In this document: positions 4,923 through 57,570 of the stretch, in pieces
How the letters are laid out: the number at the start of each line of letters is the position of its first letter
How positions within the stretch are numbered: the first letter of the stretch is position 1
From: an uncultured Candidatus Saccharibacteria bacterium
Lineage (GTDB): Bacteria > Patescibacteriota > WWE3 > 2-01-FULL-39-13
Length of the DNA stretch: 64,000 nucleotides
Assembly (NCBI GenBank): GCA_964370865.1
Contig: CAYJKF010000003.1
Span: 86,359-150,358 of the forward strand
Reading direction: 5' to 3'
The notes under the pieces: generated by a model
Seen by the model: the letters and a program-made list of their open reading frames with translations, nothing else
The model's database searches: none
What the model was told of the DNA's origin: nothing
Translations under genes and position numbers: made by a program

Positions 4923-6020
4923 ATGCCACTGCCATCAAAAAATCTGCCTGGAATTTCCAAAGTTAAATTATTAATAATAATATTTGTAGTCGCACTACTT
5001 TCTAGTGGTGGCTATTTGGGGTATCTGTATTTAAAAGGTGATTCAGTCGTAGTTGCTAACGATAGTACTGACCAAAGCGAAAATGCAGAAAATCCCCCTA
5101 TTGAAGATATTAATACCGAGAGAGATTTAGGCATAATCAATGATGAAAACTCTTTAACTTCTGGAACTGTTGAGAAAACCGCACTTCAAAAACTAAAGGA
5201 AGCCGTTAGTCCAAGTGATAAAACCAGACCATTTAATATTTTAATATTAGGAATTGATCGACGTCATGGAAATCAAACTAGTTGGAGAACCGATGTAATT
5301 CAACTTGTAACTCTGTCTTCTGATAGAAAAAAAGCAGTGGTTACGCATATTCCAAGAGATGTTTGGGTTGAAAATTATAAAATTAACGCCGTATACAACC
5401 TCCAAGGTCCCGACGCGATTAAAGACACCATAACAATGATAACTGGACAGAGACCTGACCGAATTATAAGAATCGACTTTGACGCTTTTGTATATGCAGT
5501 CGATATGGTTGGTGGAGTAAATATAGATAATCCAAATCAATTCACAGATACTGGCTATCCGGATGATAGAAATGGTAGCGACCAAGCTATCGAAATTAGT
5601 TTTCCAAAAGGTGAACAAGAGTTAAGTGGGGAGAAAGCTTTACAATATGTTAGATCAAGAAAAGGTACCAATGGAGAAGGTAGTGATTACGCTAGAGGTA
5701 GACGACAACAAGTCGTGATGAAAGCGATTCTTGCAGACTTTTTTACACCTAATAGTATAAATCCTAAAACAGCAGAAACTTTGTATCGCATTGCTACGGA
5801 AAAGATCTATACAGATTTAAATCTTGCCGATACTCAAATTCTATTTGAACTTCTTAAGAATTATAAAGATATTCAGATTAATACCCTAAGTTTGGATACA
5901 ACCAATTACTTAGAAGTTCCTGCTGACAGCAGTCCTTACGGAGGACAATGGGTATTAAGAGGAAAAGGAGATAGCTATGTTGATATCCAAAAGAAGATTA
6001 CTGAATTAATACTTCCTTAA
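4923..6020 (+). CDS. LytR-CpsA-Psr (LCP) family cell-envelope phosphotransferase
   Basis: N-terminal TM. LCP core FNILILGIDRR...RTDVIQLVTL...AVVTHIPRD. Confidence 0.8.
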   Translation: MPLPSKNLPGISKVKLLIIIFVVALLSSGGYLGYLYLKGDSVVVANDSTDQSENAENPPIEDINTERDLGIINDENSLTSGTVEKTALQKLKEAVSPSDKTRPFNILILGIDRRHGNQTSWRTDVIQLVTLSSDRKKAVVTHIPRDVWVENYKINAVYNLQGPDAIKDTITMITGQRPDRIIRIDFDAFVYAVDMVGGVNIDNPNQFTDTGYPDDRNGSDQAIEISFPKGEQELSGEKALQYVRSRKGTNGEGSDYARGRRQQVVMKAILADFFTPNSINPKTAETLYRIATEKIYTDLNLADTQILFELLKNYKDIQINTLSLDTTNYLEVPADSSPYGGQWVLRGKGDSYVDIQKKITELILP

Positions 6021-7539: not shown

Positions 7540-10500
7540 GTGAAGAAGAATATTGTCAGGCTATTATCATTTGTTGGGTTTTTATTTATTTGTGCCAATA
7601 GCGCTGTCGCTGCTTCGACTCCAACTGTTACAAATTTCACACCACTTTCAACTTCAGTTGGAACCTTTCAAAAATTCGAAGCAAATTTTACTATTTCGCA
7701 AACATTTCCAACTGATTCACTTCTACCATATTATTTTTATGACCCTGCCGATAATTCTGCTACAGACCCAGGAAGAAATTCACCATATGGCATAGATGGA
7801 ATTTCAGTTGATGTACATTTTACTGCTCCTTCAGGAAAAACATTAGTAGTCCCTGCATTTTATTATCAAGACTATTCAAGAACAGGTTCTTATAGTTCAG
7901 GCATAACTTTAACTCCAACAAATAATTTTAACTGGAAAGTAAGATTTGCACCAAGCGAAGTAGGATTTTACGACTATTATGTAACTATTACTGATAAAAA
8001 TGGAACCACAAGATATCCAACAGCAAACAGTATGCAATTGACCGCAACTTCATCATCCTCAAAAGGATTTATTAAAGTTTCGGCACAAGACAAACGGTTT
8101 TTAGAGTTTACTAACGGTGACGCGTTTATCCCAGTCTCTAGTGGAAAACAGTGGTGGTCATGTTGCGGAAAAAGAAGTTTCGATTTCGAGAAAACCTTTA
8201 CTGATTTCGGTTTAAACGGTGTTAACTTTACAAGAATTTGGGATCAAAATGATGGATATGGTTTGACTGTTGAAGGAAAATATGATGGATACAAATATCC
8301 GGATGATTACCCTCCAATTGATACAGGTGTAAATATTGATGCAATACAAAAGGGAACTCAATTTAACCAAAGAGGAAACTATGAAGAAGATAAAATAATT
8401 GAGTCAGCAGAAAAGAATGGCGTTTATATACAACTTACATCTCACGGAGATCCATATTGGATTTGGGACGGTTCTACATATGATGAATCATGGAATAAAA
8501 CACCACAAATTTTTGGAAGCCAAAGACATTTAAGTTATTGGAAAAGAAACTTTAGATATAGAGTCGCACGTTGGGGATATTCTACAAGTGTTTTCGGGTG
8601 GGAAGCGTGGAATGAACACGGACACATTACTCCAGGAATGGATATCTATAATTTTTATTCCAAATATAGTAGTTATCAATTGCAAACAGATCCTTATAAA
8701 CATCTGAGAACCACCTCACAAGGATCACAGGCATTCAGTCCTGCATTCTGGTCGTCAGGATTTTTCGATGTAGCAAATTATCATAACTACATGATGGGTT
8801 GGTTTTCATCCGATTTAAAAAACGATGAGGCAAATTTTGTTTATAGGCAGGCTTGGTGTTTACGAGACATCACAAAACTTACTTCGGGAAGTTCTTACTG
8901 CAATGATCTAGGTTTGGGTGATGGAACAAAATGGTCTACAACCTTTGGTAACATGCCTTGGGTTTGGGGCGAAATTGACGTCGGTACAAATACTTGGAAT
9001 GAACCTAATCCACTTACAAAAACAGGTGAAGGAAGAGTTAGAATGTTGCACAATTTAGCTTGGTCCGGACTTTTCTCTCCTCTTGGTACGACACCAATAG
9101 ATTGGTATTGGGAAGGTGAAGATGTAAGTACAATTGCCAATAAACTTACTCAGAAAAAAGCGGTGTCTTCGTTTTTTAAAGATATTAAATATGATGATAA
9201 CCAAATGGTGTATACGATGAGTACTTCAGATACACCTCCAGGGTATATAGGCGAAACGGTTGACGTTACGAATTCTGCAATTCGGGTTTACGCGATGAAG
9301 AGTGCAAATAAACAATATGTTTATGGATGGATACAAAACAAAAATAATACTTGGGCCAACTCTGCTTCTACCACTTCTCCAATAAATGGAAAAGCTACTT
9401 TTAAAGGTTTGGGAACAAGCTCCTATAAGGTCGAAATATGGAATACGTATACTGGTCAAATAACTTCAAGCACAGTTATGACTCCTGTTAATGGATTGTT
9501 GGATATTAATGTCTCAAATCTTACGAATGATTTTGCTGTGAAAATGATCTCGACAAATATTACACCAACTCCTACACCTACTCCAACGCCAATTCCATCA
9601 CCAACCCCAACTCCCGTTACAAGTCCTACGCCTACACCGACACCTGCTATAACTGCAACTCCAACACCTACTGTTACTCCAAGTGCAATTGGGGATGGCG
9701 ATGTTAATGGTGACAGCACTGTAAGTACTATTGATATTACGACTCTTTTAAATAATTGGAATTCAACGATTTCAAGTAGTACTGACCAGTATCGAGATGG
9801 TAAAGTTAATGGCTTAGATTTTGCTGTTGTCGCATCTGCTTTAACAGCAGTTACACCTACACCGAGTCCTACACCAACAATTACACCAACGCCAACTCCT
9901 GTCGTTACACCAACGCCTACACCAGTTCCAACACCGACCCCGATACCTGAAGCCACTTCGGGTAGCTGGAACCAATTTGGAGGTAATGCTCAAAGAACAA
10001 ATTTTACATCTCAAACAGTTCAAACACCATGGAGGTTTAAGTGGCAATGGAATGGTTCTGATGCAAATGGTCAACCTCAATCGAATCATTTATCAGTACA
10101 AGATTTGGTACAACCCGTATCAGGAGGATCAAGAGTTTATATCGTAGCAAATAACACAGTCTATGCACTTGATAAAAATAGTACTAATAAAGTAAATGGA
10201 ACTGTCTTGTGGTCAAAGAGTGGTCTCGGCAATTTAAATTCTACTGTCGCTTATGCAAACGAATTCGTATATGTCACTTCATCAAATGGATTACAGAAAC
10301 TAGATGCATCTAATGGCTCGGTTGCGGGCACTTATAATGCAAATAGTGATTTGAAATTTGCGCCACTAATTAATGGTAACAATGTGGTTGTAGCAGCTGA
10401 TAATGGACATTTAATTGCTATTGATAAGAATTCATTAAGTAAAGTGTGGGAGTATGCTCCTACATCTTCTAGTACATCGGCAACAACAGCATCATACTCG

Positions 10501-12030
10501 GCTAGTAAAAATGTTTATGTGTATATTACTCAAGACTTAAAAGTTCATGCAGTGAATGGTACAAACGGTAGTCTCAAGTGGATTCGTAAACCAACTGTTA
10601 GAAATTACGGAGATCCAAGTACTACTAATAAATCTTTAGCTCAAGCCGAAGAAGGATGGCCAGTTATTGCAGAAAATCATGGTATTGTTTTTGTACGATA
10701 TAGATTAGATTGGCAAACACTTTGGGATGGACCAGCCGATAAAGCGACCTTCCCAGCTGACAATGCAACAGCTCGCAAATTCTTAGCTGATAATCCTGCT
10801 CAACAAGCTCTATTTGCTTTAAAACTTGATGATGGTGCTGATGCTTTCACAACACCACCAAATGCAGGAAATGGTGGCGCGGGTGATGGTGGTTACTTGC
10901 CAATGGGTCCGCAACCAATTGTACGTGTCGTGGATGGAAAAGAAGTCGCGTATATGCTCTTTAGAAATATTCAAACCTGCTCTAGGGAAAGTTGGTGTGA
11001 TGGAAGGGAAGACACCACGATGGGTGAGATGGTACTCGACAATTCTACTGTAACGGGGCTATCTGGTGGTGATGTCAGGTTCGTACAATGGAGTGATTCA
11101 AAGAATTATAATACCCCTCCAGCCGATCCTTACTACCATGATATGCAAACTGATGAAATGATGTATATCACTGGTTCAGGGGATACATTATTCCATAATC
11201 ACTGGCTTGCATCAGAAGCTTATACAATTACTGACAGAAGTTCAGGACTTGGTTTGAGTTATATTCAACCGATAAAGACTACTCATGCTCCTAATGTAAT
11301 TTGGAGACAGGTTTACTGCCCAACAAGCAATACTCAGTGTAATCCAGCGATTTATCCTGGTGGTACTGGTACGAATTATGGTCCTGCAAATTGTCCATTT
11401 AATGCATCAAGTCGATATTGCGCCAGTGGATTATATGGATATGGTGATTCTAGAGCTTATGCACCTGGATTTTATGAATATCATAATTCATATAACTCAA
11501 ATGATAATTCGAAACCATTTGTCGTTGTATCTGACGGACTTGTCCTAATAAAAACAAATGATGGTGCAGTTATTGCATTAGAAAACGGAAGTCCAACTGC
11601 ATCGATTTTTGCAGATACTATTCCTGAAAATGTGTTGGGAGCACAGACTGTTAGTGGACTTCCAGAATTTTCATACAGTGATGCCAAAGATCATATTGGT
11701 GAAAACATAGTTATAAAAGCTACTGTAGTTAGTGTAGAAAACAATATGCCAAAAGCGTATTACATTGGGTTTTCTGACAATCCTCATGAAACTTTTTTGG
11801 TTAGGGTATTTGCGAAAGATGTTTCAAAATTCGGCTATGATTTAAGTACACTTAAAGGAAAAACAATTAGGATTTCTGGAACACCAAGTTTATATTGGCC
11901 AGAAGGGAAAATCGCAGAATTGGTTGTAGATAGCCCAGAACAAATTTCAATTGTTGATGACTCTGTTGAGAATGAAAGCGGAGTTAAGAAGTTTATAAAA
12001 AATATTTTTGGAAAAAATGGAAAAAACTAG
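7540..12030 (+). CDS. Giant secreted modular protein: DUF5060-like Ig, then GH5/GH140-like clan GH-A catalytic domain, beta-sandwich, PT linker, type-I dockerin-like duplicate, PT linker, PQQ-type beta-propeller, C-terminal OB-fold
   Basis: GTG start with signal peptide MKKNIVRLLSFVGFLFICANSAVAAS. GH-A acid/base VFGWEAWNEHG and nucleophile VWGEIDVG. Dockerin segments DVNGDSTVSTIDITTLLNNW and DQYRDGKVNGLDFAVVASAL (about 9691-9843). Repeated ...YALDKNS/LIAIDKNS/VHAVNGTNGS propeller blades. OB-like ...IVIKATVVSVENN...GKTIRISGTPSLYWPEGK. Confidence 0.7.
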   Translation: MKKNIVRLLSFVGFLFICANSAVAASTPTVTNFTPLSTSVGTFQKFEANFTISQTFPTDSLLPYYFYDPADNSATDPGRNSPYGIDGISVDVHFTAPSGKTLVVPAFYYQDYSRTGSYSSGITLTPTNNFNWKVRFAPSEVGFYDYYVTITDKNGTTRYPTANSMQLTATSSSSKGFIKVSAQDKRFLEFTNGDAFIPVSSGKQWWSCCGKRSFDFEKTFTDFGLNGVNFTRIWDQNDGYGLTVEGKYDGYKYPDDYPPIDTGVNIDAIQKGTQFNQRGNYEEDKIIESAEKNGVYIQLTSHGDPYWIWDGSTYDESWNKTPQIFGSQRHLSYWKRNFRYRVARWGYSTSVFGWEAWNEHGHITPGMDIYNFYSKYSSYQLQTDPYKHLRTTSQGSQAFSPAFWSSGFFDVANYHNYMMGWFSSDLKNDEANFVYRQAWCLRDITKLTSGSSYCNDLGLGDGTKWSTTFGNMPWVWGEIDVGTNTWNEPNPLTKTGEGRVRMLHNLAWSGLFSPLGTTPIDWYWEGEDVSTIANKLTQKKAVSSFFKDIKYDDNQMVYTMSTSDTPPGYIGETVDVTNSAIRVYAMKSANKQYVYGWIQNKNNTWANSASTTSPINGKATFKGLGTSSYKVEIWNTYTGQITSSTVMTPVNGLLDINVSNLTNDFAVKMISTNITPTPTPTPTPIPSPTPTPVTSPTPTPTPAITATPTPTVTPSAIGDGDVNGDSTVSTIDITTLLNNWNSTISSSTDQYRDGKVNGLDFAVVASALTAVTPTPSPTPTITPTPTPVVTPTPTPVPTPTPIPEATSGSWNQFGGNAQRTNFTSQTVQTPWRFKWQWNGSDANGQPQSNHLSVQDLVQPVSGGSRVYIVANNTVYALDKNSTNKVNGTVLWSKSGLGNLNSTVAYANEFVYVTSSNGLQKLDASNGSVAGTYNANSDLKFAPLINGNNVVVAADNGHLIAIDKNSLSKVWEYAPTSSSTSATTASYSASKNVYVYITQDLKVHAVNGTNGSLKWIRKPTVRNYGDPSTTNKSLAQAEEGWPVIAENHGIVFVRYRLDWQTLWDGPADKATFPADNATARKFLADNPAQQALFALKLDDGADAFTTPPNAGNGGAGDGGYLPMGPQPIVRVVDGKEVAYMLFRNIQTCSRESWCDGREDTTMGEMVLDNSTVTGLSGGDVRFVQWSDSKNYNTPPADPYYHDMQTDEMMYITGSGDTLFHNHWLASEAYTITDRSSGLGLSYIQPIKTTHAPNVIWRQVYCPTSNTQCNPAIYPGGTGTNYGPANCPFNASSRYCASGLYGYGDSRAYAPGFYEYHNSYNSNDNSKPFVVVSDGLVLIKTNDGAVIALENGSPTASIFADTIPENVLGAQTVSGLPEFSYSDAKDHIGENIVIKATVVSVENNMPKAYYIGFSDNPHETFLVRVFAKDVSKFGYDLSTLKGKTIRISGTPSLYWPEGKIAELVVDSPEQISIVDDSVENESGVKKFIKNIFGKNGKN
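9556..9700 (+). repeat. Pro-Thr linker-encoding simple repeat (ACNCCN)n; a second copy lies at about 9841-9952
   Basis: Translates to [16 protein letters not shown]... The antisense strand gives a spurious GVGV ORF. Confidence 0.8.
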
Positions 12031-13699
12031 AATTATACAAAAAGCAGATTTTTATCGAATAGTAAAATTTTCAATGTCTGGTTTACTATCAATTCTTGCT
12101 GGAATCGGTATTGCAAATAGTGCTTTACTTCCTGATGCACCTATTGGAAGTTCACTTAAATTACCTGAAATTTATAATGCGACAGTAAACACTGAGTTTA
12201 GTGTTCCAGTCACTGTAAATACAAATGGAACCCCTGTCGTTGCAATAGATTTTAATTTGAATTTTCCAAAAGAAAAACTTCAGCTTATGCGAATTTCTCC
12301 ATCAGCAACCTTACCAACAACTTTAACCTTTACGCCTTCTTGGTCTCAGATTGTAAATACTGCTAATCAAACTGGAAATCTTTCATTTACTGTTCTAACT
12401 TTTGATACAACAAAATCTACGGTTACAGAGCCAATTGATTCAACAAATGATTTGGTTATAGCGAACTTAATTTTTACACCTTTAGTAGTTAGCCAAGCTG
12501 AAGTAAGTTGGCTCTATTCATATGAATTAACTACTGATAGCAATGTAATAAGTGCAGGTGAGCCCAAAGATATATTAAATAGCGTAACAAGCATGCTAGT
12601 TGTTACAAGTGATCCAACTCCAGTACCAACACCAACACCAACACCAACTCCTGTCCCAACTATATTACCTGATGATACACAAGAAATAACAAATCCAGGG
12701 TTTGAAAATACTTTAACTGGATGGCAAGTATCTGGAACATCTGTAGTTCAGACAGCTCATTCAGGAACAAATGCTGCCAAATTGACTAATACATCAGCAT
12801 ATATTTCACAAAATATCGCTTCGAAATTAAAAGAAAATCAGGCATATGTCTTTTCAGCCTACGTTAAGGTCTCAAAAGCTGGTACAAGCTGGGGTGTTCC
12901 TACTCTACGTTTAAGTAAATATAAGGATTTGGGTAGTTCTGATTTTGGTCAGGCGTTATCTGTAAACAAGGTAGACAGCAATTGGCAACAAATTAAGGTA
13001 ACGAAGACTTTCACGTCATCTGAATTATCTTCAGGGGTCTATGTTGGTATACGTAATTTTGGATTTGATGGAGAATCAATTATAGATGATTTTTCAGTAA
13101 CACAATCAGTCACACCTAGCCCAACACCTACTCCAACAGCTACACCTACGCCAACGGCTACACCAACACCAACACCAACACCTACACCAACGGCAGTGCC
13201 AACTCCAGCTACCATAACTTTAACTGGAAGTATTGTTAATCAAGATGGAGATCAATATACTTCCACAAAGAGCTGGATAGGTACAGGGGCAAATGCATCT
13301 TCTAGCTACACAGGTATTAGATTTGCTGGTGTTAAACTCCCTGCAAATGCAAAGATTCAATCTGCTTTACTAGAAGTAAAAGCGTCTACTACGGAATGGA
13401 TTTTGGTTTCAGTTTCAATAAATGGTGAGAATAGTGGAGATTCTTCAAGATTCTCAAGTAAATCGTTACCAGCATCAAGAAGTCTTACACAGGCTAATGC
13501 TGCTTATTCAAGTGACAGTCAGTGGACTAGTGGGAGTTGGAATAAACTCGATGATATAAGTTCTATTGTGCAGTCAATTGTAAATCGTCAGGATTGGAAA
13601 TCAGGAAATGCACTTAGCATAATAACTAAGGGTACTGGTACAGCTTACGGGCGAAAATCTATAAATGGTGCAAGATTGATCATAACATATACGCAATAA
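12008..13699 (+). CDS. Membrane-anchored modular protein: cohesin-like domain, PT linker, CBM4/9-like carbohydrate-binding module, PT linker, C-terminal beta-rich domain X
   Basis: Overlaps the upstream gene by 23 nt. TM at aa about 20-40. Cohesin-like strands ...FSVPVTVNTNGTPVVAIDFNLNFPKEKLQLMRISPS... CBM signature QEITNPGFENTLTGWQVSG...NFGFDGESIIDDF. Confidence 0.55.
   Translation: MEKMEKTRIIQKADFYRIVKFSMSGLLSILAGIGIANSALLPDAPIGSSLKLPEIYNATVNTEFSVPVTVNTNGTPVVAIDFNLNFPKEKLQLMRISPSATLPTTLTFTPSWSQIVNTANQTGNLSFTVLTFDTTKSTVTEPIDSTNDLVIANLIFTPLVVSQAEVSWLYSYELTTDSNVISAGEPKDILNSVTSMLVVTSDPTPVPTPTPTPTPVPTILPDDTQEITNPGFENTLTGWQVSGTSVVQTAHSGTNAAKLTNTSAYISQNIASKLKENQAYVFSAYVKVSKAGTSWGVPTLRLSKYKDLGSSDFGQALSVNKVDSNWQQIKVTKTFTSSELSSGVYVGIRNFGFDGESIIDDFSVTQSVTPSPTPTPTATPTPTATPTPTPTPTPTAVPTPATITLTGSIVNQDGDQYTSTKSWIGTGANASSSYTGIRFAGVKLPANAKIQSALLEVKASTTEWILVSVSINGENSGDSSRFSSKSLPASRSLTQANAAYSSDSQWTSGSWNKLDDISSIVQSIVNRQDWKSGNALSIITKGTGTAYGRKSINGARLIITYTQ
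12678..13105 (+). repeat. Inverted-repeat copy A (CBM module cassette); partner at 20768-21200
   Basis: Central roughly 300 nt essentially identical to the reverse complement of 20880-21120 (1 mismatch seen in about 240 nt checked). Identity decays at both edges. Confidence 0.85.
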
Positions 13700-13724: not shown

Positions 13725-14987
13725 ATGAATATCTTTAAGAAATACCTAAAAAAACTAGGACCTGGCTTTATTACCGGTGCCTCAGATGATGATCCATCTG
13801 GCATTGCAACATATTCACAAACTGGGGCGTTATTTGGTTATAATCAACTTTGGACAGCCCTTTTTTCCTTTCCTTTCATGACCGTCATCCAGGAAATGTG
13901 TGGGAGAATTGGAATAGTAACAGGCAAAGGTTTAGCTGGAGTTATTCGATTACATTACTCAAAGTCAGTTTTGTATTTTGCTGTTTTTATTCTTATTCTT
14001 GCCAATACGGTTAATATAGGCTCCGACCTTGGCGCAATGGCATCCTCCGCGCAGCTCATAATACCACTTCCTTTTCCAGTTTTACTTATCTTTATCACCA
14101 TAATCTGTTTACTCCTTCAAGTTTTTGTATCGTACCACGTCTATGCTAGTATATTAAAATATTTTACGTTTTCACTTCTTGCATATGTAATTACGGTCTT
14201 TGTTCTTAAACAAGATTGGTCGTTAGCTCTGATTTCAACCGTTTTTCCAACTTTCAGTATCACGAAGCAATATCTCCTAAACATCGTTGCAATACTTGGT
14301 ACTACAATCTCACCGTATCTATTTTTCTGGCAAGCCAGCGAAGAAGTGGAGGAGGAGGTTGAGAAAGGTAAGCTAAAAAGTATGGGAGCTGGTATACCAA
14401 AATTTACCAAAAGGGATATTAAAGATCTTAGATTTGACACGATCGTAGGAATGTTTTTTTCGAATATAGTGATGTACTTCATAATTCTTACGACGGCTTC
14501 CACACTGGGACAACATGGCATAACAGACATACAAACCGCCGATCAAGCTGCACAAGCACTGCAGCCGCTAGCTGGACCATTTGCCTCATTACTTTTTACC
14601 GTTGGTATTATTGGGACAGGACTTTTAGCTGTTCCTGTCCTTGCAGGCTCTGCTTCATACGCACTTTCTGAAACTTTTGGGTGGAAAGAAGGGTTATATC
14701 GAAAATTCAAACAAGCTCATGGGTTTTATGGGATCATCACAATTGCAACACTATTAGGCCTGCTCATTAACTTCACGTCTATTCCACCATTTAAAATGCT
14801 TTACTACACAGCAGTATTAAATGGAATTTGCGCACCACCACTAATGATACTAATTTTGCTAATCTCAAATAATGGAAAAATTATGAAAGGCTACACTAAT
14901 GGAAAGTTTTCTAATGTTATGGGGTGGATTATTACAATACTAATGTCTGTCTCTGCCACTGCTCTTATCGCAACCTTTCTTTTCTGA
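13725..14987 (+). CDS. NRAMP-family divalent metal cation transporter
   Basis: GPGFITGASDDDPSGIATYSQTGALFGY (Nramp DPGN-region variant). Multi-TM. Confidence 0.7.
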   Translation: MNIFKKYLKKLGPGFITGASDDDPSGIATYSQTGALFGYNQLWTALFSFPFMTVIQEMCGRIGIVTGKGLAGVIRLHYSKSVLYFAVFILILANTVNIGSDLGAMASSAQLIIPLPFPVLLIFITIICLLLQVFVSYHVYASILKYFTFSLLAYVITVFVLKQDWSLALISTVFPTFSITKQYLLNIVAILGTTISPYLFFWQASEEVEEEVEKGKLKSMGAGIPKFTKRDIKDLRFDTIVGMFFSNIVMYFIILTTASTLGQHGITDIQTADQAAQALQPLAGPFASLLFTVGIIGTGLLAVPVLAGSASYALSETFGWKEGLYRKFKQAHGFYGIITIATLLGLLINFTSIPPFKMLYYTAVLNGICAPPLMILILLISNNGKIMKGYTNGKFSNVMGWIITILMSVSATALIATFLF

Positions 14988-15043
14988 TGTTGGTTAGTAG
15001 TTATGTTGGGGTAAAGGATTATCTTAGGAATTTTTAAAACAAT

Positions 15044-15086
15044 GTGAGACCGTGTTATCGACTTTCGTCAAAAAACACGGTCTCAC
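15044..15086 (-). terminator. Stem-loop (13-bp perfect stem GTGAGACCGTGTT/AACACGGTCTCAC) followed on the minus strand by a T-run; terminator of the island gene at 15108-15614 and left border of GC-rich island 1
   Basis: Perfect inverted repeat read from the sequence. Lies between convergent genes. Confidence 0.5.
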
Positions 15087-15107
15087 TACCGCGAATCGTG
15101 GAAACTA

Positions 15108-15614
15108 CTAGCCCCACGGCAATACGGTAAAGTACTTCCAGTTACACTCCCAACGCCCCGCACCGGGAGGTAACAAATAGGGATACCACATGCACTCCTC
15201 GTAGACCAATGAGACCCTGATATGTTTTGGAATCTGGATGATATTTCCAACTTCAGGTTCCCCTGGAGGAGTGTCAACTGGTCGGTATGGGTATACTGTA
15301 ATCTCCCGTTCTAAGTCGCTGGCTATGACTCTATCAACACGAATCCTGTTTGGGTAGTATTCTCCCGTAATTGGATCCTGCCAAACCTCAGTTCCCGACT
15401 CGGAACCATCCCGAAGCCAAAATACAACATGCTTAGCTCGAATCTCGGTCCGTGTCCACCCCGCAACGATTGGTGCAAATATACGATACAACTGTCCTGG
15501 GGTCGGTTCCGGTGTTTGCAGAGGTTCCTGCGCCTGAGCTGTCATAGGAACAATCCCTATTACGACAACCGCCAAAATCTTTATTATAAGATACAGCAAC
15601 TTCGATCTCATCAT
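15108..15614 (-). CDS. Hypothetical secreted protein (GC-rich island 1)
   Basis: Signal peptide. Roughly 50% GC versus about 35% in flanks. Canonical SD AGGAGGG (15616-15622) immediately upstream. The true start is probably the second ATG (15611). Confidence 0.6.
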   Translation of the reverse strand: MMRSKLLYLIIKILAVVVIGIVPMTAQAQEPLQTPEPTPGQLYRIFAPIVAGWTRTEIRAKHVVFWLRDGSESGTEVWQDPITGEYYPNRIRVDRVIASDLEREITVYPYRPVDTPPGEPEVGNIIQIPKHIRVSLVYEECMWYPYLLPPGAGRWECNWKYFTVLPWG

Positions 15615-15823
15615 ACCCTCCTGTGTGAAAATAATGTGCTAAAGCCGCGTTGGCTTGAGTGAGATTATATCAATAACACCTAAATTGTCCTAATTGACGC
15701 TGACTTAAAATTTAAACATGATAGTGAAGAGGTATCAAAAGCCGTGGTGAGTCTCAGAGTTCAAATCTGGAACACCTAATTCAAAATTAATAACATAATC
15801 CGAAAAAATATATATTGATTGAT

Positions 15824-15875
15824 AAAAAAGATTGGGAACCGGTCGATTGCTTGTTAGCATATTCGACCGGTCCCC
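15824..15875 (-). terminator. Rho-independent terminator for the 15885-16232 gene
   Basis: Stem GGGAACCGGTCGA/TCGACCGGTCCCC (1 mismatch) followed on the minus strand by TCTTTTTTATC. Confidence 0.55.
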
Positions 15876-15884
15876 GGCTAGAGG

Positions 15885-16232
15885 TTAGTTCAGCCATCCA
15901 TGATTTGCTGAGCCAGCCTCAAGCGTCGCGGCCACCATCTGGCTTATTTCGTCCTTTATCAGGCCGATTTGCAATGCGTTAAGCACTGTGGAGGCGTTGA
16001 TTCGCCGATCCCCTTCGGGGAACACTACTGTTACAGCCGACATTATTCCATGCTCCTGACATGCAATAATGCCTGTAAAGGCAAATTCTGTTGCGCTTTG
16101 TGGTAACAGCCTTTGAACCAGCGATATACTCTCGTCGCAAATTACGCAATCCGCTAGGCGACATTCACCCGATGTAATCTCCTTTCCAATTACTACAACA
16201 ACCGCCATGAGCGACATTTTCCCTTTACACAT
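15885..16232 (-). CDS. Hypothetical protein (GC-rich island 1)
   Basis: About 48% GC. SD AAGGGAG 8 nt upstream of the ATG. TTGACA-N16-TATAAT promoter upstream. Confidence 0.55.
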   Translation of the reverse strand: MCKGKMSLMAVVVVIGKEITSGECRLADCVICDESISLVQRLLPQSATEFAFTGIIACQEHGIMSAVTVVFPEGDRRINASTVLNALQIGLIKDEISQMVAATLEAGSANHGWLN

Positions 16233-16291
16233 GTGAGAGTCTCCCTTGTGTGGGTTCGTGGCTAACCGCAGTTGGTTTGCTACGTTTTTTT

Positions 16292-16319
16292 ATTATATAT
16301 CCCATAGTTAGAGTGTCAA
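16292..16319 (-). promoter_or_regulatory. Putative promoter TTGACA (16319-16314) -N16- TATAAT (16297-16292) for the island gene at 15885-16232
   Basis: Consensus hexamers with 16-nt spacer read on the minus strand. Confidence 0.45.
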
Positions 16320-16479
16320 TACATCTGTATTTGGAGGACAATTCTAAAAATTAAAGCTATTGAACGAAAGTCTCATAATATTGAGACGATTGTGATTCAT
16401 GATGATATTTATTTTTCGGAACGCTCTATTAGCCTCATTTATCGCATAAAAAGATGATTTAAGATGTGTGAAAGACAAA

Positions 16480-16554
16480 TGGTGACCCTACGGGGAGTCG
16501 AACCCCGCTTTACAGGATGAAAACCTGCTGTCCTAACCGATAGACGATAGGGCC
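16480..16554 (-). tRNA. tRNA-Glu (anticodon TTC), CCA encoded
   Basis: Reverse complement GGCCCTA...GGACAGCAGG-TTTTCAT-CCTGT...CGGGG-TTCGACT-CCCCG-TAGGGTC-A-CCA folds as a cloverleaf. Confidence 0.85.
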
Positions 16555-16636
16555 ATTGTTTAAACGTAAACTTAGAAAGTATACCAAACAAAAAGCCCCT
16601 CATAAATGAGGGGCTTCGACGTTTTACTAAATATAA

Positions 16637-17323
16637 TTAGTTTCTTGTACCCATTACATCGAAATTTATTGCAACTTCATCCTCGACAGTATAAACATTA
16701 AGTAAATTTGGAGCTTTAATTCCAAAATCACTCATCTTAATTCTTGACTCACCACTAGCAATTAAAGCTTCAGGTGTAACGTTGTAGGTTACATTGAAAT
16801 CAACCTGTTTCGAAACTCCATTTATTGTAACGTTTAATGGTAAAACAGCTGTTTGATCTGTACCTTCTATCATCGTTAGATTAGTGAAATCTCCACTTAT
16901 AATAATATCCTTTTCACTAACATAATTTTGAAATAAATCAGAATCTCTTGTTGGGTTTCCAGTCGTAAAGTCTGAGAAACTAAAATTAGCTTCTACTCTC
17001 CCCATCATAGTTACTGGGTCGAAGTATCCATTACCTGCAATAGTAGTATTTACACCTTCAACATCAGAAGGACCAGTAGCAATAAATACTTTATTTGCAA
17101 TGTATTTGACAGTACCCTCCGTAATCGTGTATCGATAAGAGCCTTCAGGGGCATCAGATTGAGTTTCCTCAACCATCATTGTTTCTGTTTCAGTAACAAC
17201 CGAACTTTCATCCATCATGGTTGTTGCAGGAACTTCAGGGTTTTTATTAACCATATAAACTAATCCGCCGAATACGAGAACTCCCACGGCTGCAAGGAGG
17301 TAATACGTAGATTTTTGATCCAT
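16637..17323 (-). CDS. YceI-like (polyisoprenoid-binding) domain protein, membrane-anchored
   Basis: Start taken at internal ATG 17323 (MDQKSTYY...) to avoid overlap and fit the TM anchor. YceI motif FSFSDFTTGNPTRDSDLF. Confidence 0.6.
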   Translation of the reverse strand: MDQKSTYYLLAAVGVLVFGGLVYMVNKNPEVPATTMMDESSVVTETETMMVEETQSDAPEGSYRYTITEGTVKYIANKVFIATGPSDVEGVNTTIAGNGYFDPVTMMGRVEANFSFSDFTTGNPTRDSDLFQNYVSEKDIIISGDFTNLTMIEGTDQTAVLPLNVTINGVSKQVDFNVTYNVTPEALIASGESRIKMSDFGIKAPNLLNVYTVEDEVAINFDVMGTRN

Positions 17324-18712: not shown

Positions 18713-19051
18713 ATGGCTAAACTATATGTAGGCAATTTGCCTTATACTTACAATGAAAGTTCAATCCGAGATATGTTCTCAGGATTCCAAGAAATTCAAT
18801 CTGTCAGCTTGATAACCGATAAACAAACCGGTAGAAGCAAAGGATTCGGTTTCGTAGAATTAAGTGATGCAGATGCTGATAAAGCAATCGCAGAACTAAA
18901 TGGAAAAGATATCGGAGGAAGAACAGTAGTCGTATCTATCGCTAGACCTATGGAAGACCGTCCAAGAAGAGATTTCGGAGGCGGAGGAAATAGTAGAGGT
19001 GGTGGATTCGGTGGAGGAAACAGAAGTGGTGGATTTAATAGAAGAGGATAA
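18713..19051 (+). CDS. RRM-type glycine-rich RNA-binding protein
   Basis: RNP-2 LYVGNL and RNP-1 KGFGFVEL. C-terminal RGG/GGF-rich tail. Confidence 0.85.
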   Translation: MAKLYVGNLPYTYNESSIRDMFSGFQEIQSVSLITDKQTGRSKGFGFVELSDADADKAIAELNGKDIGGRTVVVSIARPMEDRPRRDFGGGGNSRGGGFGGGNRSGGFNRRG

Positions 19052-19140: not shown

Positions 19141-21921
19141 TTAATTTGGGACGTGAACGGTACCACCACCATCGCTAAACCTTCTTTGTAAAGCTCGGTC
19201 ATTCAAAGTTGAGCAAACCGATAATTTACATATATCAGCTTCAACAGATGAAATCATCTGTTTAAGTCCGGAAGTAAACTTAGTTGTCACGGCATTGCCT
19301 CCGAGAGGATCAGTCCACCATACTTGAGCACCACCTGAATTTGATACACGATTTCGTCCAAAGTAAGTTGTTCTCTTTAAACCTTTAAATGGGGAGCTTG
19401 GCGAATCCCAAGCGGTATTTCCACCTCCACATTCTGCTAAACGTGGCGAATAAGTTCCTGGTATTCTTAATAATCCTTCACATTCCTCTGAGGTATATCT
19501 ATAATCTTTTTGCCAAGATCGAGTAGGATGTCGATATCCAATGTCTATTAATCTTACAGGGTCTAGTACATCCCATTGTCTACCATGCTCGGCTAGCATT
19601 TTTCCAGATGGCGTAGTAATTCTTAAATCACCCTGCCAAATTTCATACGGGTTGAAATATTTAGTAGCAGTTCCTAAACTTTCCAAACAAGCGACATCAG
19701 TCATGTTACGACCCAAAGTATCACTATATACACTATTTGGAAGTCTACTTAATAACGGGTCAGTGAGTGTACAGCTCGCTCCTGGAACTGGAACCATTTC
19801 ATAGCCATTATATGTAGCAATTAGTTTGCCATCTAAACCGCATATATCGTTAAACCGACTTTGTCCACAAAATCTTTTATAGATACCTGGATCTCCAAAA
19901 GTCATCATTCCAGTTAATAAAACGACATTTTTAGGATATAATTTGCTCGCATTTAATCCATTTACATCTACACTCATACAACTTGAGTGGAATATAACCT
20001 CGTGTAAATTATTTAAGATTGCATCACCAGAGTGAGTTCCTTGATGAAATTTATGTAAATGGGTACATACAACCCCAGTTGGACTATATACGGAGGAACC
20101 ATATGGAATATTCACTCCAACTGTTCCAGCTAATTGCGCCATCGGATGGGTTGTGTTTCCAACCAGATCGGATTCATTGTTAGCAATCTCGATTTTATGA
20201 CCCACATGGTCTTCATGTCGAACAAATACAGAATCCTGTTGATCCTGATTATAATACAAATCCATGTGTTCATTGGATATACCAAATGGTATTCCAGCTC
20301 TATCTCCGGGGGAAATTACTCCCGCTGCAGATATAACTAAAGGACTAATAACACCGTCCCCATTTTGATCTATACCAAAATGTCTTACGATATCATTCCA
20401 GTAAATATAACTTTGCGGATTTGAACCATGTTCATGACCAAAATAACATCTACCACTTCCTGTAATTGGGTTTGTAACGACTGGCGGATGCCAGGTAGGG
20501 TATTTTAGTCCATCATAAGCAACTACATAGTATTGATTATGAGCATCGACTACATTTGTACCATCGTCACATTTATCATATCGACTATTTGGTATATTTT
20601 TTCCATTTGGGCCCCAAGCCATCATTGCCATACTCTCACCTGCAACAGGCTCCATTCCTCCAATATGCGTTGGCATTGGAGTCGGTGTAGGAGTAATTAC
20701 TGGAGTTACCGTAACTACTGGAGTTGGAGTTATCATAGGTGTGGGAGTTGGAGTTGGGCTAGCAGTACCAGATTCTGTTACTAAAAAATCATCTACAACT
20801 GACTCTCCATCAAACCCAAAATTACGTATACCAAGATAAACGCCTGAAGATAATTCAGATGACGTGAAAGACTTTGTTACCTTAATTTGTTGCCAATTGC
20901 TGTCTACCTTGTTTACAGATAACGCCTGACCAAAATCAGAACTACCCAAATCCTTATATTTACTTAAACGTAGAGTAGGAACACCCCAGCTTGTACCAGC
21001 TTTTGAGACCTTAACGTAGGCTGAAAAGACATATGCCTGATTTTCTTTTAATTTCGAAGCGATATTTTGTGAAATATATGCTGATGTATTAGTCAATTTG
21101 GCAGCATTTGTTCCCGAATGAGCTGTTTGAACTACAGATGTTCCAGATACTTGCCATCCTGTTAAAGAATTTTCAAAACCTGGATTTGTTATTTCTTGTG
21201 TACCACTAGGAGTTGGTGTTGGAACGGGTGTCGGAGTAGATGTTGGAACCGGCGTTGGTGTCATAGTCGGTTCTGCCACATTGGAGGAAAACTCAACTAA
21301 TAATTTTGTTTTATCTCCTGTACCTATAAATTTTCTAGCGTAAGGGTTGCCAGTTCCTTTAAGGATAACCATGATGCTTTTTCCAGGTTCCCATGCCTCA
21401 TTATTTACAATTTGTTGGATAGCATTTTCTAATCCACCAACTTTGTACCTCTTTCCAGAAATCCATTTTTCATTTTTTGAATAGGCTAGACTTGAAGAAT
21501 ATGCACTATTATATGAACTTTCAACTCCACTATCAGAATTTTCAACGATCTTTGCTCTAGCTACAAAACTTGTTTCAATCCACTGGTTAGTAGGGGAGGT
21601 AAATTCAATTGAAGCGCCTTTAACTGAAGAACCTTTTACTACTTGAACATTATTAAACATTAAAACGGTATATGAATTATCCTTGCTTTCACCATTTCCA
21701 ATCCATGGGTTAGAGGTTGTCATATTACCAGCATCTTGATTAGATACTGCAACTGAGTTAGCTGATATTTTCTCAACACTTTGTGCAAATATTCTTGAAA
21801 AAAATGGGTTACCGGATGTTTTGAAATCGTATGCAAGAAATGCGATAGCGAGGAGCCCCCAAACAATCATTACGCCTGTCATTAATTTATCGACTTTAGG
21901 TTGTTGAGTTTTCTTTTGCAT
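19141..21921 (-). CDS. Large membrane-anchored secreted modular protein: domain X', PT linker, CBM4/9-like module (near-identical to that of 12008-13699), PT linker, roughly 500-aa His/Cys-rich C-terminal domain of unknown (possibly metal-dependent hydrolytic) function
   Basis: N-terminal TM. CBM QEITNPGFENSLTGWQVSG... C-terminal domain rich in HxH/Hxx motifs (FGHEHG, HEDHVGHK, HLHKFHQGTH). Confidence 0.6.
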   Translation of the reverse strand: MQKKTQQPKVDKLMTGVMIVWGLLAIAFLAYDFKTSGNPFFSRIFAQSVEKISANSVAVSNQDAGNMTTSNPWIGNGESKDNSYTVLMFNNVQVVKGSSVKGASIEFTSPTNQWIETSFVARAKIVENSDSGVESSYNSAYSSSLAYSKNEKWISGKRYKVGGLENAIQQIVNNEAWEPGKSIMVILKGTGNPYARKFIGTGDKTKLLVEFSSNVAEPTMTPTPVPTSTPTPVPTPTPSGTQEITNPGFENSLTGWQVSGTSVVQTAHSGTNAAKLTNTSAYISQNIASKLKENQAYVFSAYVKVSKAGTSWGVPTLRLSKYKDLGSSDFGQALSVNKVDSNWQQIKVTKSFTSSELSSGVYLGIRNFGFDGESVVDDFLVTESGTASPTPTPTPMITPTPVVTVTPVITPTPTPMPTHIGGMEPVAGESMAMMAWGPNGKNIPNSRYDKCDDGTNVVDAHNQYYVVAYDGLKYPTWHPPVVTNPITGSGRCYFGHEHGSNPQSYIYWNDIVRHFGIDQNGDGVISPLVISAAGVISPGDRAGIPFGISNEHMDLYYNQDQQDSVFVRHEDHVGHKIEIANNESDLVGNTTHPMAQLAGTVGVNIPYGSSVYSPTGVVCTHLHKFHQGTHSGDAILNNLHEVIFHSSCMSVDVNGLNASKLYPKNVVLLTGMMTFGDPGIYKRFCGQSRFNDICGLDGKLIATYNGYEMVPVPGASCTLTDPLLSRLPNSVYSDTLGRNMTDVACLESLGTATKYFNPYEIWQGDLRITTPSGKMLAEHGRQWDVLDPVRLIDIGYRHPTRSWQKDYRYTSEECEGLLRIPGTYSPRLAECGGGNTAWDSPSSPFKGLKRTTYFGRNRVSNSGGAQVWWTDPLGGNAVTTKFTSGLKQMISSVEADICKLSVCSTLNDRALQRRFSDGGGTVHVPN
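20768..21200 (-). repeat. Inverted-repeat copy B (CBM module cassette); partner at 12678-13105
   Basis: See copy A. Confidence 0.85.
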
Positions 21922-43706: not shown

Positions 43707-44101
43707 TAAAACAGTATATCAGAAATAAAATAGGAATTAAAAACTACAAACAAACCCATAAGTAAAAAATTATCTTATCCCTTTCGGGCACCCGTTTATT
43801 AGAACGGATGGGGTTTGTTTTATTATGGTCAAGAAGGTTTACTTAATATTCGCAACCTCTTGCCTTGTTACAGCAATGCGCACCTCTGTCACACTGAGCG
43901 CAACTACAACTGCACGGGCCACCCACACGGATGGAATGGAAAAAATGCAAAAATCTTTCCCACATATAACAACTCCCTCTTCTTAAAGGTCTCCGCGTTG
44001 GAAACACTATTACTATAGGATAGTCCAATTGGGCAGAAAAGTCAAGATAAGAAGGTTGAAAATAGGCTAGGGATACGACCTTAAAGCAGAGAGGGCTCTA
44101 T

Positions 44102-55253: not shown

Positions 55254-55385
55254 CGCAAACCTCATAACTATAATTAAATAGCCTTGTATACCATTGACCT
55301 AATAGTATAATTATAGGACGTTCGCAACGCGCGAATCGGTTTTTCGCACATTAATAACATATCAACCAGAACAAGGAGATAGATC

Positions 55386-57500
55386 ATGAATACTCGACTA
55401 ACAGTGTTCGTTTTTGTGGCTGCAATCATCATGAGTAGCTTGCCATCTAATGCAAACGCTCAAGATGTGACCTCTGAAGAAGTTTGGACACCAATCTACG
55501 CAGAAGTTCCTCAGGTTGTTGAGTCAGCATCCTTGAACAGAAACGATTATGTTTGTTTCTGGGAAAAGGTTGTGGATGAGACAGTCCAAGAGGCCGATAC
55601 ATCGCAGTTTTTGGCAACAGTAGAAACGCCAACTGCGTACTCAGGAAATCGTGCTTTCAGACGTTTCGGTGACGAAACACCTTCTGGAACCACGACGAGA
55701 ATTAAACTGTCAGCTCAACTAGCAATCCCAGAAGCCGAGCTCGTTTTTATAAGAGCTTACTACCGTGGCATAGACGTTGGTCAGTACGACAACATCGTAG
55801 CTTCGGTGAAGGTGAATGGACAAGATTTACCAGGAAGCGCACCAGTACAGCTCACGCGTGGACCAGTCAGCAATGATTGGCAAAGATGGGAAGTTGTTTT
55901 ACCACAAGGATCTACAAGTGTGGATTTCGAACTTTTCGGGAACTATGTCGATGGAAACTCATACGACATAGACCAAGTCGGCATCGGCTGGTGTAAGACC
56001 GCCACCAATGCTGAACCAGAGATATTGCCACCAGGCGATATCCTTAGTATGTATGCACCAGTACTGCTATTTGGTGGGCAACTCCGAAACCACGGAACAA
56101 GTGCCATTGTGGCATTTGACCCAAGAGGGCTCAGAAGTTTTGAGTTACTCTGGGAAGCAGGAGAAGCTAGTAAGGTTTTGAACCGCCAATGGGGCTTGGG
56201 AGACAATCCCGCCGGTTGGCATTATGGAGGACTGAGACTCGGGGACAAGCTATGGATGGCGAAGGATAGTCTAGAATCATGGAGTTACGCAGGGAAGATC
56301 ACCAGCACTCGCTGTTTTTCCGAAGTAGGTTGTGCCAACCACATGAATGCGCTTCTTCAGAAGATTGCACAAATGGAGCGATCCGGTAACTCAAATCCAG
56401 ATAAACTGCAACATCTCAAGGACGTTGCGCTATGGATGGAGGGAAAGATCGGGTATTACACGGAAGTAGTTAAGCAGGGAAGACTTGCTTACTTGCAACA
56501 GCAGGTGAATTTGGTCTTTGAGGTTAGGGGAGCACAGTTGTCCGAATCCTACAGCAAAATGGGTAGGTATCAGTATATACTGGATGGTCGGATGCCTTGG
56601 AGTCAGCTAAGAGCTATAGAGATGCCAGCTGGCACAAGTCGCCAAATGTCCCTCAATATATGGAAGCAATTCGTCGCTTCGGGAGCCCCACGCATCACGA
56701 AGTTAGTAGTCGGTGATGTCGAGGAACAGATTTCCTTATGGACACGCTACACTGGTCAGTTGAGGAGCTATAATGTTCCAAGTCTAATTGCCGTAGGTGG
56801 AACAGCACTTACCGCGACGATGACATACGTTAGATCAGCAACTGCACTAGCAAATGAATATGCACTACCAGCAGTAGGTGCTGTCGTTGGTGGTGATGCG
56901 CTACTTGATACTCTGATGTACGTGGATTTAGATCCCAACGAAACCTCAATGAGTTGGGATGAATATCTAGTCTCCGAGAATCTTCTCGTGGCTGCACTCT
57001 CTGGCAGAGAATCCAGTTTGCCGATTGTGCAATCAATTATCGGCTACGAGAATTCGTCGCTACAAATCTGTATTCCACAAGAGAAGGAATTTCTTGTGAA
57101 CTACGATCTTCATGCCACTTCGTTCACACATCCTCAGGTGTGTTCATTCCAGTGGTGGAAGATTTCGGCAAAAGACGACAATGGTGTAACTATCTCCAAA
57201 GTTGGGACTGACATCCAACTTCCACTCTCACAAGAGCTAGGTGGCAGTACATACTCCATGGCATCGTTCGATCGAGATCACGGCATGATATTGGCTGACT
57301 TCTGGTTTGAACTAGTGAGGTTCGATTCCGCGCAAAACACTGCGACTATTGCAGTATCATTTGTCGGTTTTCGGACTTCGGAGGAGCTAGGGCTCTGTTA
57401 TGCCTGGCTACCGCCGGAAAAGTCTCAAGCCCTTGGGCGCGAACAATGTGCCAAAGGGGCGCAACAGGCGTACTTACCAGCAGTAAGTTCTGGCCGGTAA
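55386..57500 (+). CDS. Hypothetical secreted protein (704 aa) encoded in GC-rich island 2
   Basis: Signal peptide. Noticeably higher GC than flanks. Canonical SD AAGGAG (55373-55378) 7 nt upstream. Confidence 0.6.
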   Translation: MNTRLTVFVFVAAIIMSSLPSNANAQDVTSEEVWTPIYAEVPQVVESASLNRNDYVCFWEKVVDETVQEADTSQFLATVETPTAYSGNRAFRRFGDETPSGTTTRIKLSAQLAIPEAELVFIRAYYRGIDVGQYDNIVASVKVNGQDLPGSAPVQLTRGPVSNDWQRWEVVLPQGSTSVDFELFGNYVDGNSYDIDQVGIGWCKTATNAEPEILPPGDILSMYAPVLLFGGQLRNHGTSAIVAFDPRGLRSFELLWEAGEASKVLNRQWGLGDNPAGWHYGGLRLGDKLWMAKDSLESWSYAGKITSTRCFSEVGCANHMNALLQKIAQMERSGNSNPDKLQHLKDVALWMEGKIGYYTEVVKQGRLAYLQQQVNLVFEVRGAQLSESYSKMGRYQYILDGRMPWSQLRAIEMPAGTSRQMSLNIWKQFVASGAPRITKLVVGDVEEQISLWTRYTGQLRSYNVPSLIAVGGTALTATMTYVRSATALANEYALPAVGAVVGGDALLDTLMYVDLDPNETSMSWDEYLVSENLLVAALSGRESSLPIVQSIIGYENSSLQICIPQEKEFLVNYDLHATSFTHPQVCSFQWWKISAKDDNGVTISKVGTDIQLPLSQELGGSTYSMASFDRDHGMILADFWFELVRFDSAQNTATIAVSFVGFRTSEELGLCYAWLPPEKSQALGREQCAKGAQQAYLPAVSSGR

Positions 57501-57508
57501 GGCAACAA

Positions 57509-57570
57509 AAGGCGTTATGCGAATTTTTGGATCTAATCCATTAAATCTCGTATAGCGCCTTGTTTTTTTT
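57509..57570. terminator. Bidirectional terminator-like hairpin (AAGGCGTTATGCG ... CGTATAGCGCCTT, 11/13 bp) with T8 run
   Basis: Lies between convergent genes. U-run on the + strand. Confidence 0.5.

Follow-up and report, generated by a model that had tools for sequence, protein, structure and literature searches.

Islands and islets inserted by tyrosine integrases (the Islander type) lie 3' of a tRNA gene, have an atypical composition and contain an internal tRNA 3' fragment, the regenerated tRNA and the displaced fragment marking the two ends of the insertion (PMC4383910). Phage morons are independent units of differing composition, each with its own promoter and factor-independent terminator, whose accessory products are often secreted (PMC3594210). 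Here we analyse a locus with traits of both in a 64,000-nucleotide (nt) stretch of DNA (the window; contig CAYJKF010000003.1, positions 86,359 to 150,358, assembly GCA_964370865.1) from an uncultured Candidatus Saccharibacteria bacterium of the Candidate Phyla Radiation (CPR). On balance, we favour the view that the interval at 15,025-16,320, 3' of a tRNA-Glu gene, holds two separate, foreign-like monocistronic modules, named after their open reading frames (ORFs) ORF1 and ORF2, and that these belong to a dispersed, likely imported family.

Of these island traits, the position 3' of an intact tRNA gene and the atypical composition recur at this locus, a tRNA 3' fragment lies within it, and two units stacked at a single tRNA recall tandem accretion. 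The locus differs from such islands in that it has no integrase, its tRNA fragment cannot be recognised as a repeat of the intact tRNA, no fragment stands at the outer end, the units hold one gene in ~0.6 kb, and sister modules occur away from tRNA genes. The moron traits recur as well, with promoters and terminators as predicted from consensus scans and folding energies, but the setting is core chromosomal with no phage genes nearby, and the leader hairpin shared by the modules is not described for morons. Like the modules, integron gene cassettes hold small ORFs, mostly orphans and odd in composition, with an imperfect palindrome 3' of each; the modules, by contrast, are dispersed, have their own promoters and lack attC or attI sites, an array and an integron integrase, and the 3' hairpins of ORF1 and ORF2 look like plain terminators with T runs, mutually unrelated in sequence and single copy in the window. 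Elements of the IS200/IS605 type and miniature inverted-repeat transposable elements differ from the modules too, as there is no Pfam transposase match, the 3' element is single copy, and no convincing flanking direct repeats or target-site duplications surround the four modules of the window.

Stabiliser stem-loops at the 5' terminus and boxB-type hairpins occur in bacterial and phage leaders. The leader hairpin of the modules is similar in its 4-6-bp stem and 5-6-nt loop, its position a few nt from the predicted transcript start, and its conserved loop on a covarying stem, but its loop, A(A/T)C(T)GC, is not the boxB sequence and it matches no Rfam family. We class the locus as an accretion of minimal, moron-like gene modules at a tRNA gene; what sets it apart is a leader element common to the modules, in a CPR genome that is largely leaderless.

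Two GC-rich genes of atypical composition

Mean GC content of the window is 36.2%. Measured in 300-nt windows, it reaches 0.49-0.51 at 15100-15550 and 0.50 at 15850-16150, against 0.35-0.39 in the flanks. An earlier note on this DNA had described one GC-rich segment of ~1.25 kb; the elevation is real but not continuous, as a spacer of ~35% GC (15620-15830) divides two blocks. GC content at third codon positions (GC3) is 0.491 for ORF1 and 0.483 for ORF2, more than 5 standard deviations (sd) over the native mean (0.264, sd 0.044, for the 44 other ORFs), and the surplus comes chiefly from G-ending codons. Relative synonymous codon usage (RSCU) of the two genes is uncorrelated with that of the pooled native genes (0.08 and -0.03, respectively, compared to 0.76-0.96 for individual native genes), such that 300-nt GC, GC3 and RSCU all mark both ORFs as atypical. 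The encoded proteins are poor in Lys and Asn, with raised Arg, Pro and Trp in the ORF1 protein and raised Ala, Cys and Val in that of ORF2. Ten kb upstream of the window, GC3 is 0.25-0.29 in the genes coding for L20, L35, IF3 and several tRNA synthetases; because of this normal value in ribosomal protein genes, high GC3 is not the signature of high expression in this organism, and codon bias of that kind is ruled out as its source.

Each module would constitute a full expression unit, made up of a sigma-70-type promoter, a 50-70-nt leader with a CA-rich stretch, a Shine-Dalgarno (SD) site, the GC-rich ORF and a terminator (Table 1). Both minus-strand ORFs were found as the earlier note had placed them, each with the strong SD site and the rho-independent terminator attributed to it. 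The terminators are stable hairpins with T runs (-31.7 kcal/mol, z -5.9 for ORF1, whose T run reaches ~15025; -30.3 kcal/mol, z -7.1 for ORF2; folding versus shuffles). The TTGACA-N16-TATAAT promoter that had been assigned to both genes is perfect for ORF2, whereas ORF1 has AGGACA in place of the -35 consensus. Of the two possible ORF1 starts, the second ATG (15611) has the better SD spacing and agrees with the start of the gene of its relative.

The ORF1 protein has a predicted N-terminal signal peptide ending in AQA, before QE (-3/-1 rule). BLASTP and deeper searches show both proteins to be near-orphans. Among 5.8 billion protein clusters, ORF1 has two relatives, a variant with a 24-nt deletion and a protein (P0002) encoded on two 1.4-kb contigs (L002 and L003), which is 66% identical by BLASTP and 63% by tblastn. 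Comparison with P0002 gave a ratio of nonsynonymous to synonymous divergence (dN/dS) of 0.14, at a dS of ~1.8, and all alignment gaps are multiples of 3. On this evidence, ORF1 is a genuine gene under purifying selection, coding for a predicted secreted protein. The ORF1 product has two invariant Cys residues and is probably a small, secreted, beta-rich protein. Sequence searches with ORF1 and ORF2 gave no Pfam, NCBIfam, PADLOC or solved-structure match and just weak matches to PHROG phage families (E 0.037-0.26), all of unassigned function, and AlphaFold2 models had a predicted local distance difference test score (pLDDT) of 41 both for ORF1 (from 3 sequences) and for ORF2 (from its sequence alone).

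ORF2 has no credible relative. A word-indexed protein search returned the self-match alone, and HMMER, run exhaustively against 1.84 billion representatives, added one 2541-aa adhesin. We rejected this adhesin as a homologue: its repeated MBG domains each match weakly (24-29% identity over 42-49 aa), and we read the hit as summed repeat noise. The ORF2 protein carries a Cys-X4-Cys-X2-Cys motif and no signal peptide, and from its sequence would be a small cytoplasmic protein. The ORF exactly occupies the space from SD site to terminator. A non-coding RNA in its place was likewise rejected, since the region folds no better than shuffles (z -0.69) and has no Rfam match; over 14900-16650, the tRNAs alone reach the Rfam 15 gathering score, and nothing plausible appears up to an E-value of 10.

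The surrounding native genes had been described as leaderless and without SD sites, which proved mostly correct for promoter-proximal starts and incorrect for operon-internal ones. A -10-like hexamer ends 4-12 nt 5' of the start codon at 21 of 40 native starts, compared to 6.5% of control internal ATGs, and an SD core is present at 4 of the 40, which points to widespread leaderless mRNAs among promoter-proximal native genes. Examples of leaderless-type starts, with a TATAAT-like box and no SD, are at 4923, 6971, 31200, 33760, 38006, 42183, 48902 and 57569. Operon-internal native genes, on the other hand, carry strong SD sites (e.g. AAGGAGG before clpP). The ribosome is therefore able to use an SD, and an SD by itself is no sign of foreignness; the GC-rich genes stand out in that a monocistronic unit has both a long leader and an SD site.

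Related leaders at dispersed loci

Across 84 kb, five or more GC-rich loci have related leaders. Besides ORF1 and ORF2, the window contains two sister modules, ORF3 and ORF4 (Table 1). ORF3 encodes a 704-aa secreted orphan protein (55386-57500, plus strand, GC3 0.445) that has no relative among the 5.8 billion clusters; Pfam, NCBIfam and the solved structures gave no match either. The leader and terminator of ORF3 are built like those of ORF1 and ORF2. ORF4 is an uncalled gene for a 40-aa Cys-rich peptide (MWERFLHFFHSIRVGG followed by PCSCSCAQCDRGAHCCNKARGCEY; 43965-43843, minus strand) just downstream of lexA. This peptide has a Gly-Gly motif, possibly a double-glycine leader cleavage site as in bacteriocin-like peptides or those resembling ribosomally synthesized and post-translationally modified peptides (RiPPs). 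The fifth unit lies ~10 kb upstream of the window start (L096:2478-4085) and is an SD-led three-gene operon directly after tRNA-Val. Its products measure 243 aa, 78 aa (with a weak immunoglobulin (Ig)-like match) and 110 aa (a membrane protein), its leader hairpin has an ATCGC loop, and a GCACAAT box and a terminator stem of 17 bp are also present. Taken together, the products of the family (two secreted proteins, the membrane protein, the small Ig-like protein, ORF2 and the Cys-rich peptide) have the appearance of accessory proteins of the surface or secretome.

In all four modules of the window, the leader contains a small hairpin that begins a few nt past the -10 box. ORF1, ORF3 and ORF4 have the loop AACGC and ORF2 has AACTGC, on stems that differ in sequence (Table 1). 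The resemblance of the leaders extends to the box GCACA(T/A)T and to CA-rich sequence 5' of the SD site, with pairwise leader scores of z 4.4 for ORF1 with ORF2 and z 5.2 for ORF3 with the tRNA-Val operon. When the five leaders are aligned, 90% of the cells are paired and 5 of the 6 pairs change on both sides, a count that is illustrative only, because part of the leader set came from a search that required pairing, so that the covariation is not independent of the choice of cases; this pairing was matched by none of 500 shuffles, and slid registers were also far below it. The placement of the hairpin is the stronger argument: of the four AACGC-loop hairpins in the window, three precede GC-rich, SD-led genes, compared to 0-1 for each composition-matched control loop. 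G-U pairs occur on the sense strand only, which favours an RNA structure over a DNA palindrome. The motif was not enriched in 869 kb of other genomes, and we rejected a general CPR feature on that ground. A gene for a 112-aa RNA-binding protein with an RRM_1 domain (18713-19051, plus strand) lies 2 kb from the locus and is, speculatively, a candidate hairpin-binding protein.

Table 1. Features of the tRNA-Glu locus and of the sister modules, in window coordinates
Feature	Position	Strand	Remarks
ORF1 terminator hairpin	15039..15092	-	13-bp outer stem, inner 5-bp stem, GAAA loop
ORF1 coding sequence	15108..15611	-	167 aa from second ATG (15611), or 168 aa from 15614
ORF1 SD site AGGAGGG	15616..15622	-	
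ORF1 leader hairpin AAGCC-AACGC-GGCTT	15642..15656	-	~7 nt past -10 box, then GCACATT
ORF1 promoter AGGACA-16-TATAAT, TG-extended -10	15664..15691	-	consensus scan
tRNA trailer CGGCTTTTGATACCTCTTCACTATCATG...	15707..15744	-	homologous to DNA directly 3' of tRNA-Glu(CUC) in L002
Decayed 3' half of second tRNA-Glu	15745..15776	-	variable loop to ACCA-proximal end
ORF2 terminator hairpin	15834..15875	-	13-bp stem, inner 4-bp stem and tetraloop; T run to ~15824
ORF2 coding sequence	15885..16232	-	115 aa; other gene calls: 110 aa from 16217
ORF2 SD site AAGGGAG	16241..16247	-	
ORF2 leader hairpin AACC-AACTGC-GGTT	16264..16277	-	inside longer helix starting ~6 nt past -10 box
ORF2 promoter TTGACA-16-TATAAT	16292..16319	-	12/12 consensus matches
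Small hairpin then TTTCGTTC, 3' of tRNA-Glu	16370..16387	-	likely weak terminator of tRNA transcript
Intact tRNA-Glu(UUC)	16480..16554	-	same strand as both modules
ORF4 sister module, beside lexA	43747..44045	-	promoter TTGACT-17-TATCCT, SD, long hairpin terminator
ORF4 leader hairpin GTTTCC-AACGC-GGAGAC	44005-43989	-	
ORF3 sister module, between uvrA and uvrC region	55284..57569	+	promoter TTGTAT-16-TATAAT, SD, 14-bp hairpin terminator
ORF3 leader hairpin GTTCGC-AACGC-GCGAAT	55320-55336	+	then GCACATT

The tRNA remnant and the conserved arms of ORF1

A remnant of a second tRNA-Glu stands between the two modules. The minus strand at 15776-15745 reads GGTGTTCCAGATTTGAACTCTGAGACTCACCA, followed by CGGCTTTTGATACCTCTTCACTATCAT; it is a decayed 3' half whose T stem is disrupted by G>A and C>T changes. 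Together with its trailer (15707-15776), it aligns to the end and trailer of the tRNA-Glu(CUC) gene of contig L002 with a score of 60 (shuffles 24 ± 3.9), including an exact 13-nt run in the trailer. This L002 gene is cut by the contig end and scores 36.5 bits in Rfam, and the ORF1 homologue follows directly 3' of it, without an intervening ORF2. Neither ARAGORN nor Rfam called the remnant, and a full-length pseudo-tRNA was rejected, as the 5' half was undetectable under scoring tolerant of G>A and C>T decay (p 0.12-0.37). As a side observation, the motif TTAGGTGTT occurs on the minus strand at 15757-15779, the 5' edge of the remnant, and again at 15661-15683 in the ORF1 promoter spacer; it is also retained in the ORF1 promoter of the relative and may be due to chance.

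The earlier note had explained the locus as a single horizontally acquired mini-island at the tRNA, with a duplicated tRNA-Glu 3' fragment to be sought at its far border. Atypical composition, near-orphan proteins and a tRNA fragment speak for this proposal; a single island and a clean attachment-site (att) repeat are not supported. Because the remnant lies between ORF2 and ORF1, the two modules are not one island, and because kindred modules stand at lexA and at uvrA-uvrC, away from tRNA genes, a single tRNA-targeted island is in any case an inadequate explanation. The pattern of remnant and intact tRNA nonetheless fits, by analogy, the ends of a tRNA-integrated island. Based on the position of the remnant and on the arrangement in L002, we suggest that the ORF1 module was joined to a tRNA-Glu first, and that the segment from the tRNA-Glu to 15777, bearing the ORF2 module with or beside the present tRNA-Glu(UUC), came in later. 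Its arrival would have cost the older tRNA-Glu copy its 5' half, the leftover 3' half would then have decayed, and the responsible recombinase would since have been lost from the vicinity.

Comparison of ORF1 with its L002 homologue also revealed an unusual pattern that calls for explanation: untranslated flanks that are near-invariant beside a coding region whose synonymous sites are saturated (proportion of synonymous differences, pS, 0.68). The same codon is used at 49 of the 98 conserved residues, evenly spread over the gene. Conversely, the segment from -35 to SD is ~93% identical, and the 3' block at 15025-15107 (stop codon through terminator) is near-identical with an exact run of 47 nt. 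Homology stops at AAAAATTCCTA, DNA between the conserved blocks is unalignable, and the tRNA-Glu genes of the window and of L002 are 83% alike. Recombination tracts at the ends of the coding sequence are ruled out because synonymous divergence is uniform. Neither recent import nor long vertical residence, in simple form, accounts for near-invariant arms around a saturated ORF1; the untranslated arms may be under strong sequence-specific constraint, or lineages may have exchanged them. Another GC-rich unit lies 3' of the ORF1 homologue (L002:1040-1275), with a -10 box, several tight hairpins (one with an ATAGC loop just 5' of an AAAGGAG SD), an ORF of 16 codons and a GC-rich terminator. Rfam gave no match for this unit, which may encode a small peptide or a structured RNA.

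The neighbours of the modules in the window include Nramp, YceI, NDH-2, uvr, mut and lexA genes. The Nramp protein is 70-77% identical to proteins of metagenome-assembled genomes labelled Curtissbacteria or Levybacteria, its best match coming from a bin labelled Pseudomonadales, which suggests that the host belongs to the Microgenomates group of the CPR. At 80 loci with Nramp in genome collections, the nearest CPR relatives included, neither ORF1, ORF2, YceI nor NDH-2 was found nearby, and no gene order was in common with the window; hence there is no orthologous interval to compare. The window also encodes very large secreted proteins with Pro/Thr-rich linkers (7540-13699, plus strand; 19141-21921, minus strand) that contain CBM_4_9, dockerin and PQQ beta-propeller domains, and two of these ORFs, of 1496 and 563 aa, overlap by 23 nt.

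Origin and possible role of the modules

Several points weigh against an imported origin at this tRNA. The earlier note had stated that no integrase is present, and among the called genes of the window and of the 10 kb to each side of it, none is annotated with an integrase, transposase or other recombinase family. Nor was a donor found: protein-level searches of viral contigs, GenBank phages and PLSDB plasmids gave no match, and neither did searches of Joint Genome Institute (JGI) metagenomes and viral contigs with exact DNA patterns from the conserved ORF1 arms. The similarity of the tRNA remnant to the adjacent tRNA-Glu(UUC) is not significant, which does not support a clean att direct repeat, and no significant tRNA fragment is present at the outer ends of the ORF1 module or of the tRNA-Val operon. 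Insertion and deletion within a tandem tRNA-Glu pair would fit as well as classical integration. Moreover, GC3 is ~0.5 in both ORF1 and its L002 homologue despite saturated synonymous sites, which recent un-ameliorated import does not predict. Finally, promoters, transcription starts, expression and terminators are all predicted from sequence, the coding status of ORF2 is read solely from its architecture, and, as noted above, the covariation count depends in part on the choice of leaders.

The retained GC3 of ORF1 and its 66%-identical relative is also what would suggest a native, lineage-specific regulon, i.e. old resident genes that were not imported and whose composition, leaders and hairpin were kept by selection, e.g. 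on mRNA stability or for a dedicated regulatory circuit of secreted proteins. In keeping with such a regulon, the non-coding flanks are near-constant, the leaders are interrelated within one genome, the locus is fixed and clonal, SD sites are used at native internal cistrons, and the collections searched contain no donor. We nevertheless consider it rather unlikely, though deserving of serious attention, on the grounds that amino-acid composition is displaced towards a GC-richer proteome as well, that codon usage is uncorrelated and its rise is mainly in G3 and not the C-ending bias expected of translational selection, that ribosomal protein genes and IF3 show no GC3 shift, that neither ORF2 nor ORF3 has a relative, other CPR genomes included, and that a truncated tRNA marks the module junction. 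That last feature would also be at home in the remnant of a degraded prophage or integrative element, left as moron-like cargo after deletion of the integrase and structural genes: promoter, terminator and atypical composition agree with the definition of a moron (PMC3594210), the modules lie beside tRNA-Glu and the sister operon beside tRNA-Val. Such a remnant strikes us as improbable, since no module protein has a phage-family match at E <0.03 or any match to a defence system, phage record or viral contig, no phage gene lies nearby, the sister modules stand singly between core repair genes, and each locus measures just 0.3-2.3 kb.

An assembly chimera, contamination or non-coding GC-rich DNA with chance ORFs is scarcely credible as an explanation. 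It is true that ORF2 has no homologue and a poor AlphaFold2 model (pLDDT 41), and that long chance ORFs arise in GC-rich DNA. However, all 10 contigs that span the 1.8-kb interval, assembled independently from different samples, have 100% the same DNA, one of them with a single-nucleotide polymorphism (SNP; contig L008, position 15569), and this sameness across independent contigs rules out an assembly artefact. An eleventh contig (L001) ends inside the interval and has a 24-nt in-frame deletion (~15552-15575); like the SNP, the deletion lies in the part of ORF1 that encodes the signal peptide. A look-up with Nramp retrieved 23 contigs in 4 arrangements, none with a different gene spacing. The locus is thus fixed and clonal in the source population, without presence/absence polymorphism. 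Non-coding DNA is further disfavoured by the purifying selection on ORF1, and for ORF2 by its exact fit between SD site and terminator, by a sequence not unusually structured as RNA and by the lack of an Rfam family match.

Under the favoured reading of imported one-gene modules, each module would be transcribed from its own promoter, with the 5' hairpin as part of the mRNA. At the RNA level, this hairpin may either block RNase J at the 5' end or serve, through its conserved loop, as the binding site of a common regulator. Protection of the 5' end is plausible because CPR bacteria retain the 5'-exonuclease RNase J (PMC12641178). Translation would then be SD-dependent and transcription would stop at the long hairpin, the outcome being leader- and SD-dependent expression of accessory, largely secreted or membrane-bound orphans in an otherwise mostly leaderless genome. 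We tentatively raise the possibility, which we hold with reserve, that the hairpin and the GCACA/CA-rich leader constitute an undescribed cis-acting RNA element that marks a lineage-specific pool of exchangeable expression modules (promoter, leader, orphan ORF and terminator), and that imported secretome genes owe to it both their leader- and SD-dependent expression and a shared control. On this view, the non-coding arms would stay near-invariant while the coding part diverges until saturated.

As an island alone, the locus would be ordinary, and its interest lies mainly in the module family and in the conserved untranslated arms. The genomes of CPR bacteria are tiny and believed to hold few mobile elements. 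Little is known of the ways in which these bacteria acquire and express new genes, notably those for surface and secreted proteins relevant to an episymbiotic life. The locus suggests that gene gain in the CPR may proceed by minimal units of one gene, which either carry a complete expression kit with them or receive it on arrival, a kit unlike the mostly leaderless gene layout of the host. Should the hairpin bind a regulator or stabilise the message, the modules would form a small regulon of accessory genes, and the hairpin would provide a handle for spotting imported genes in other CPR genomes.

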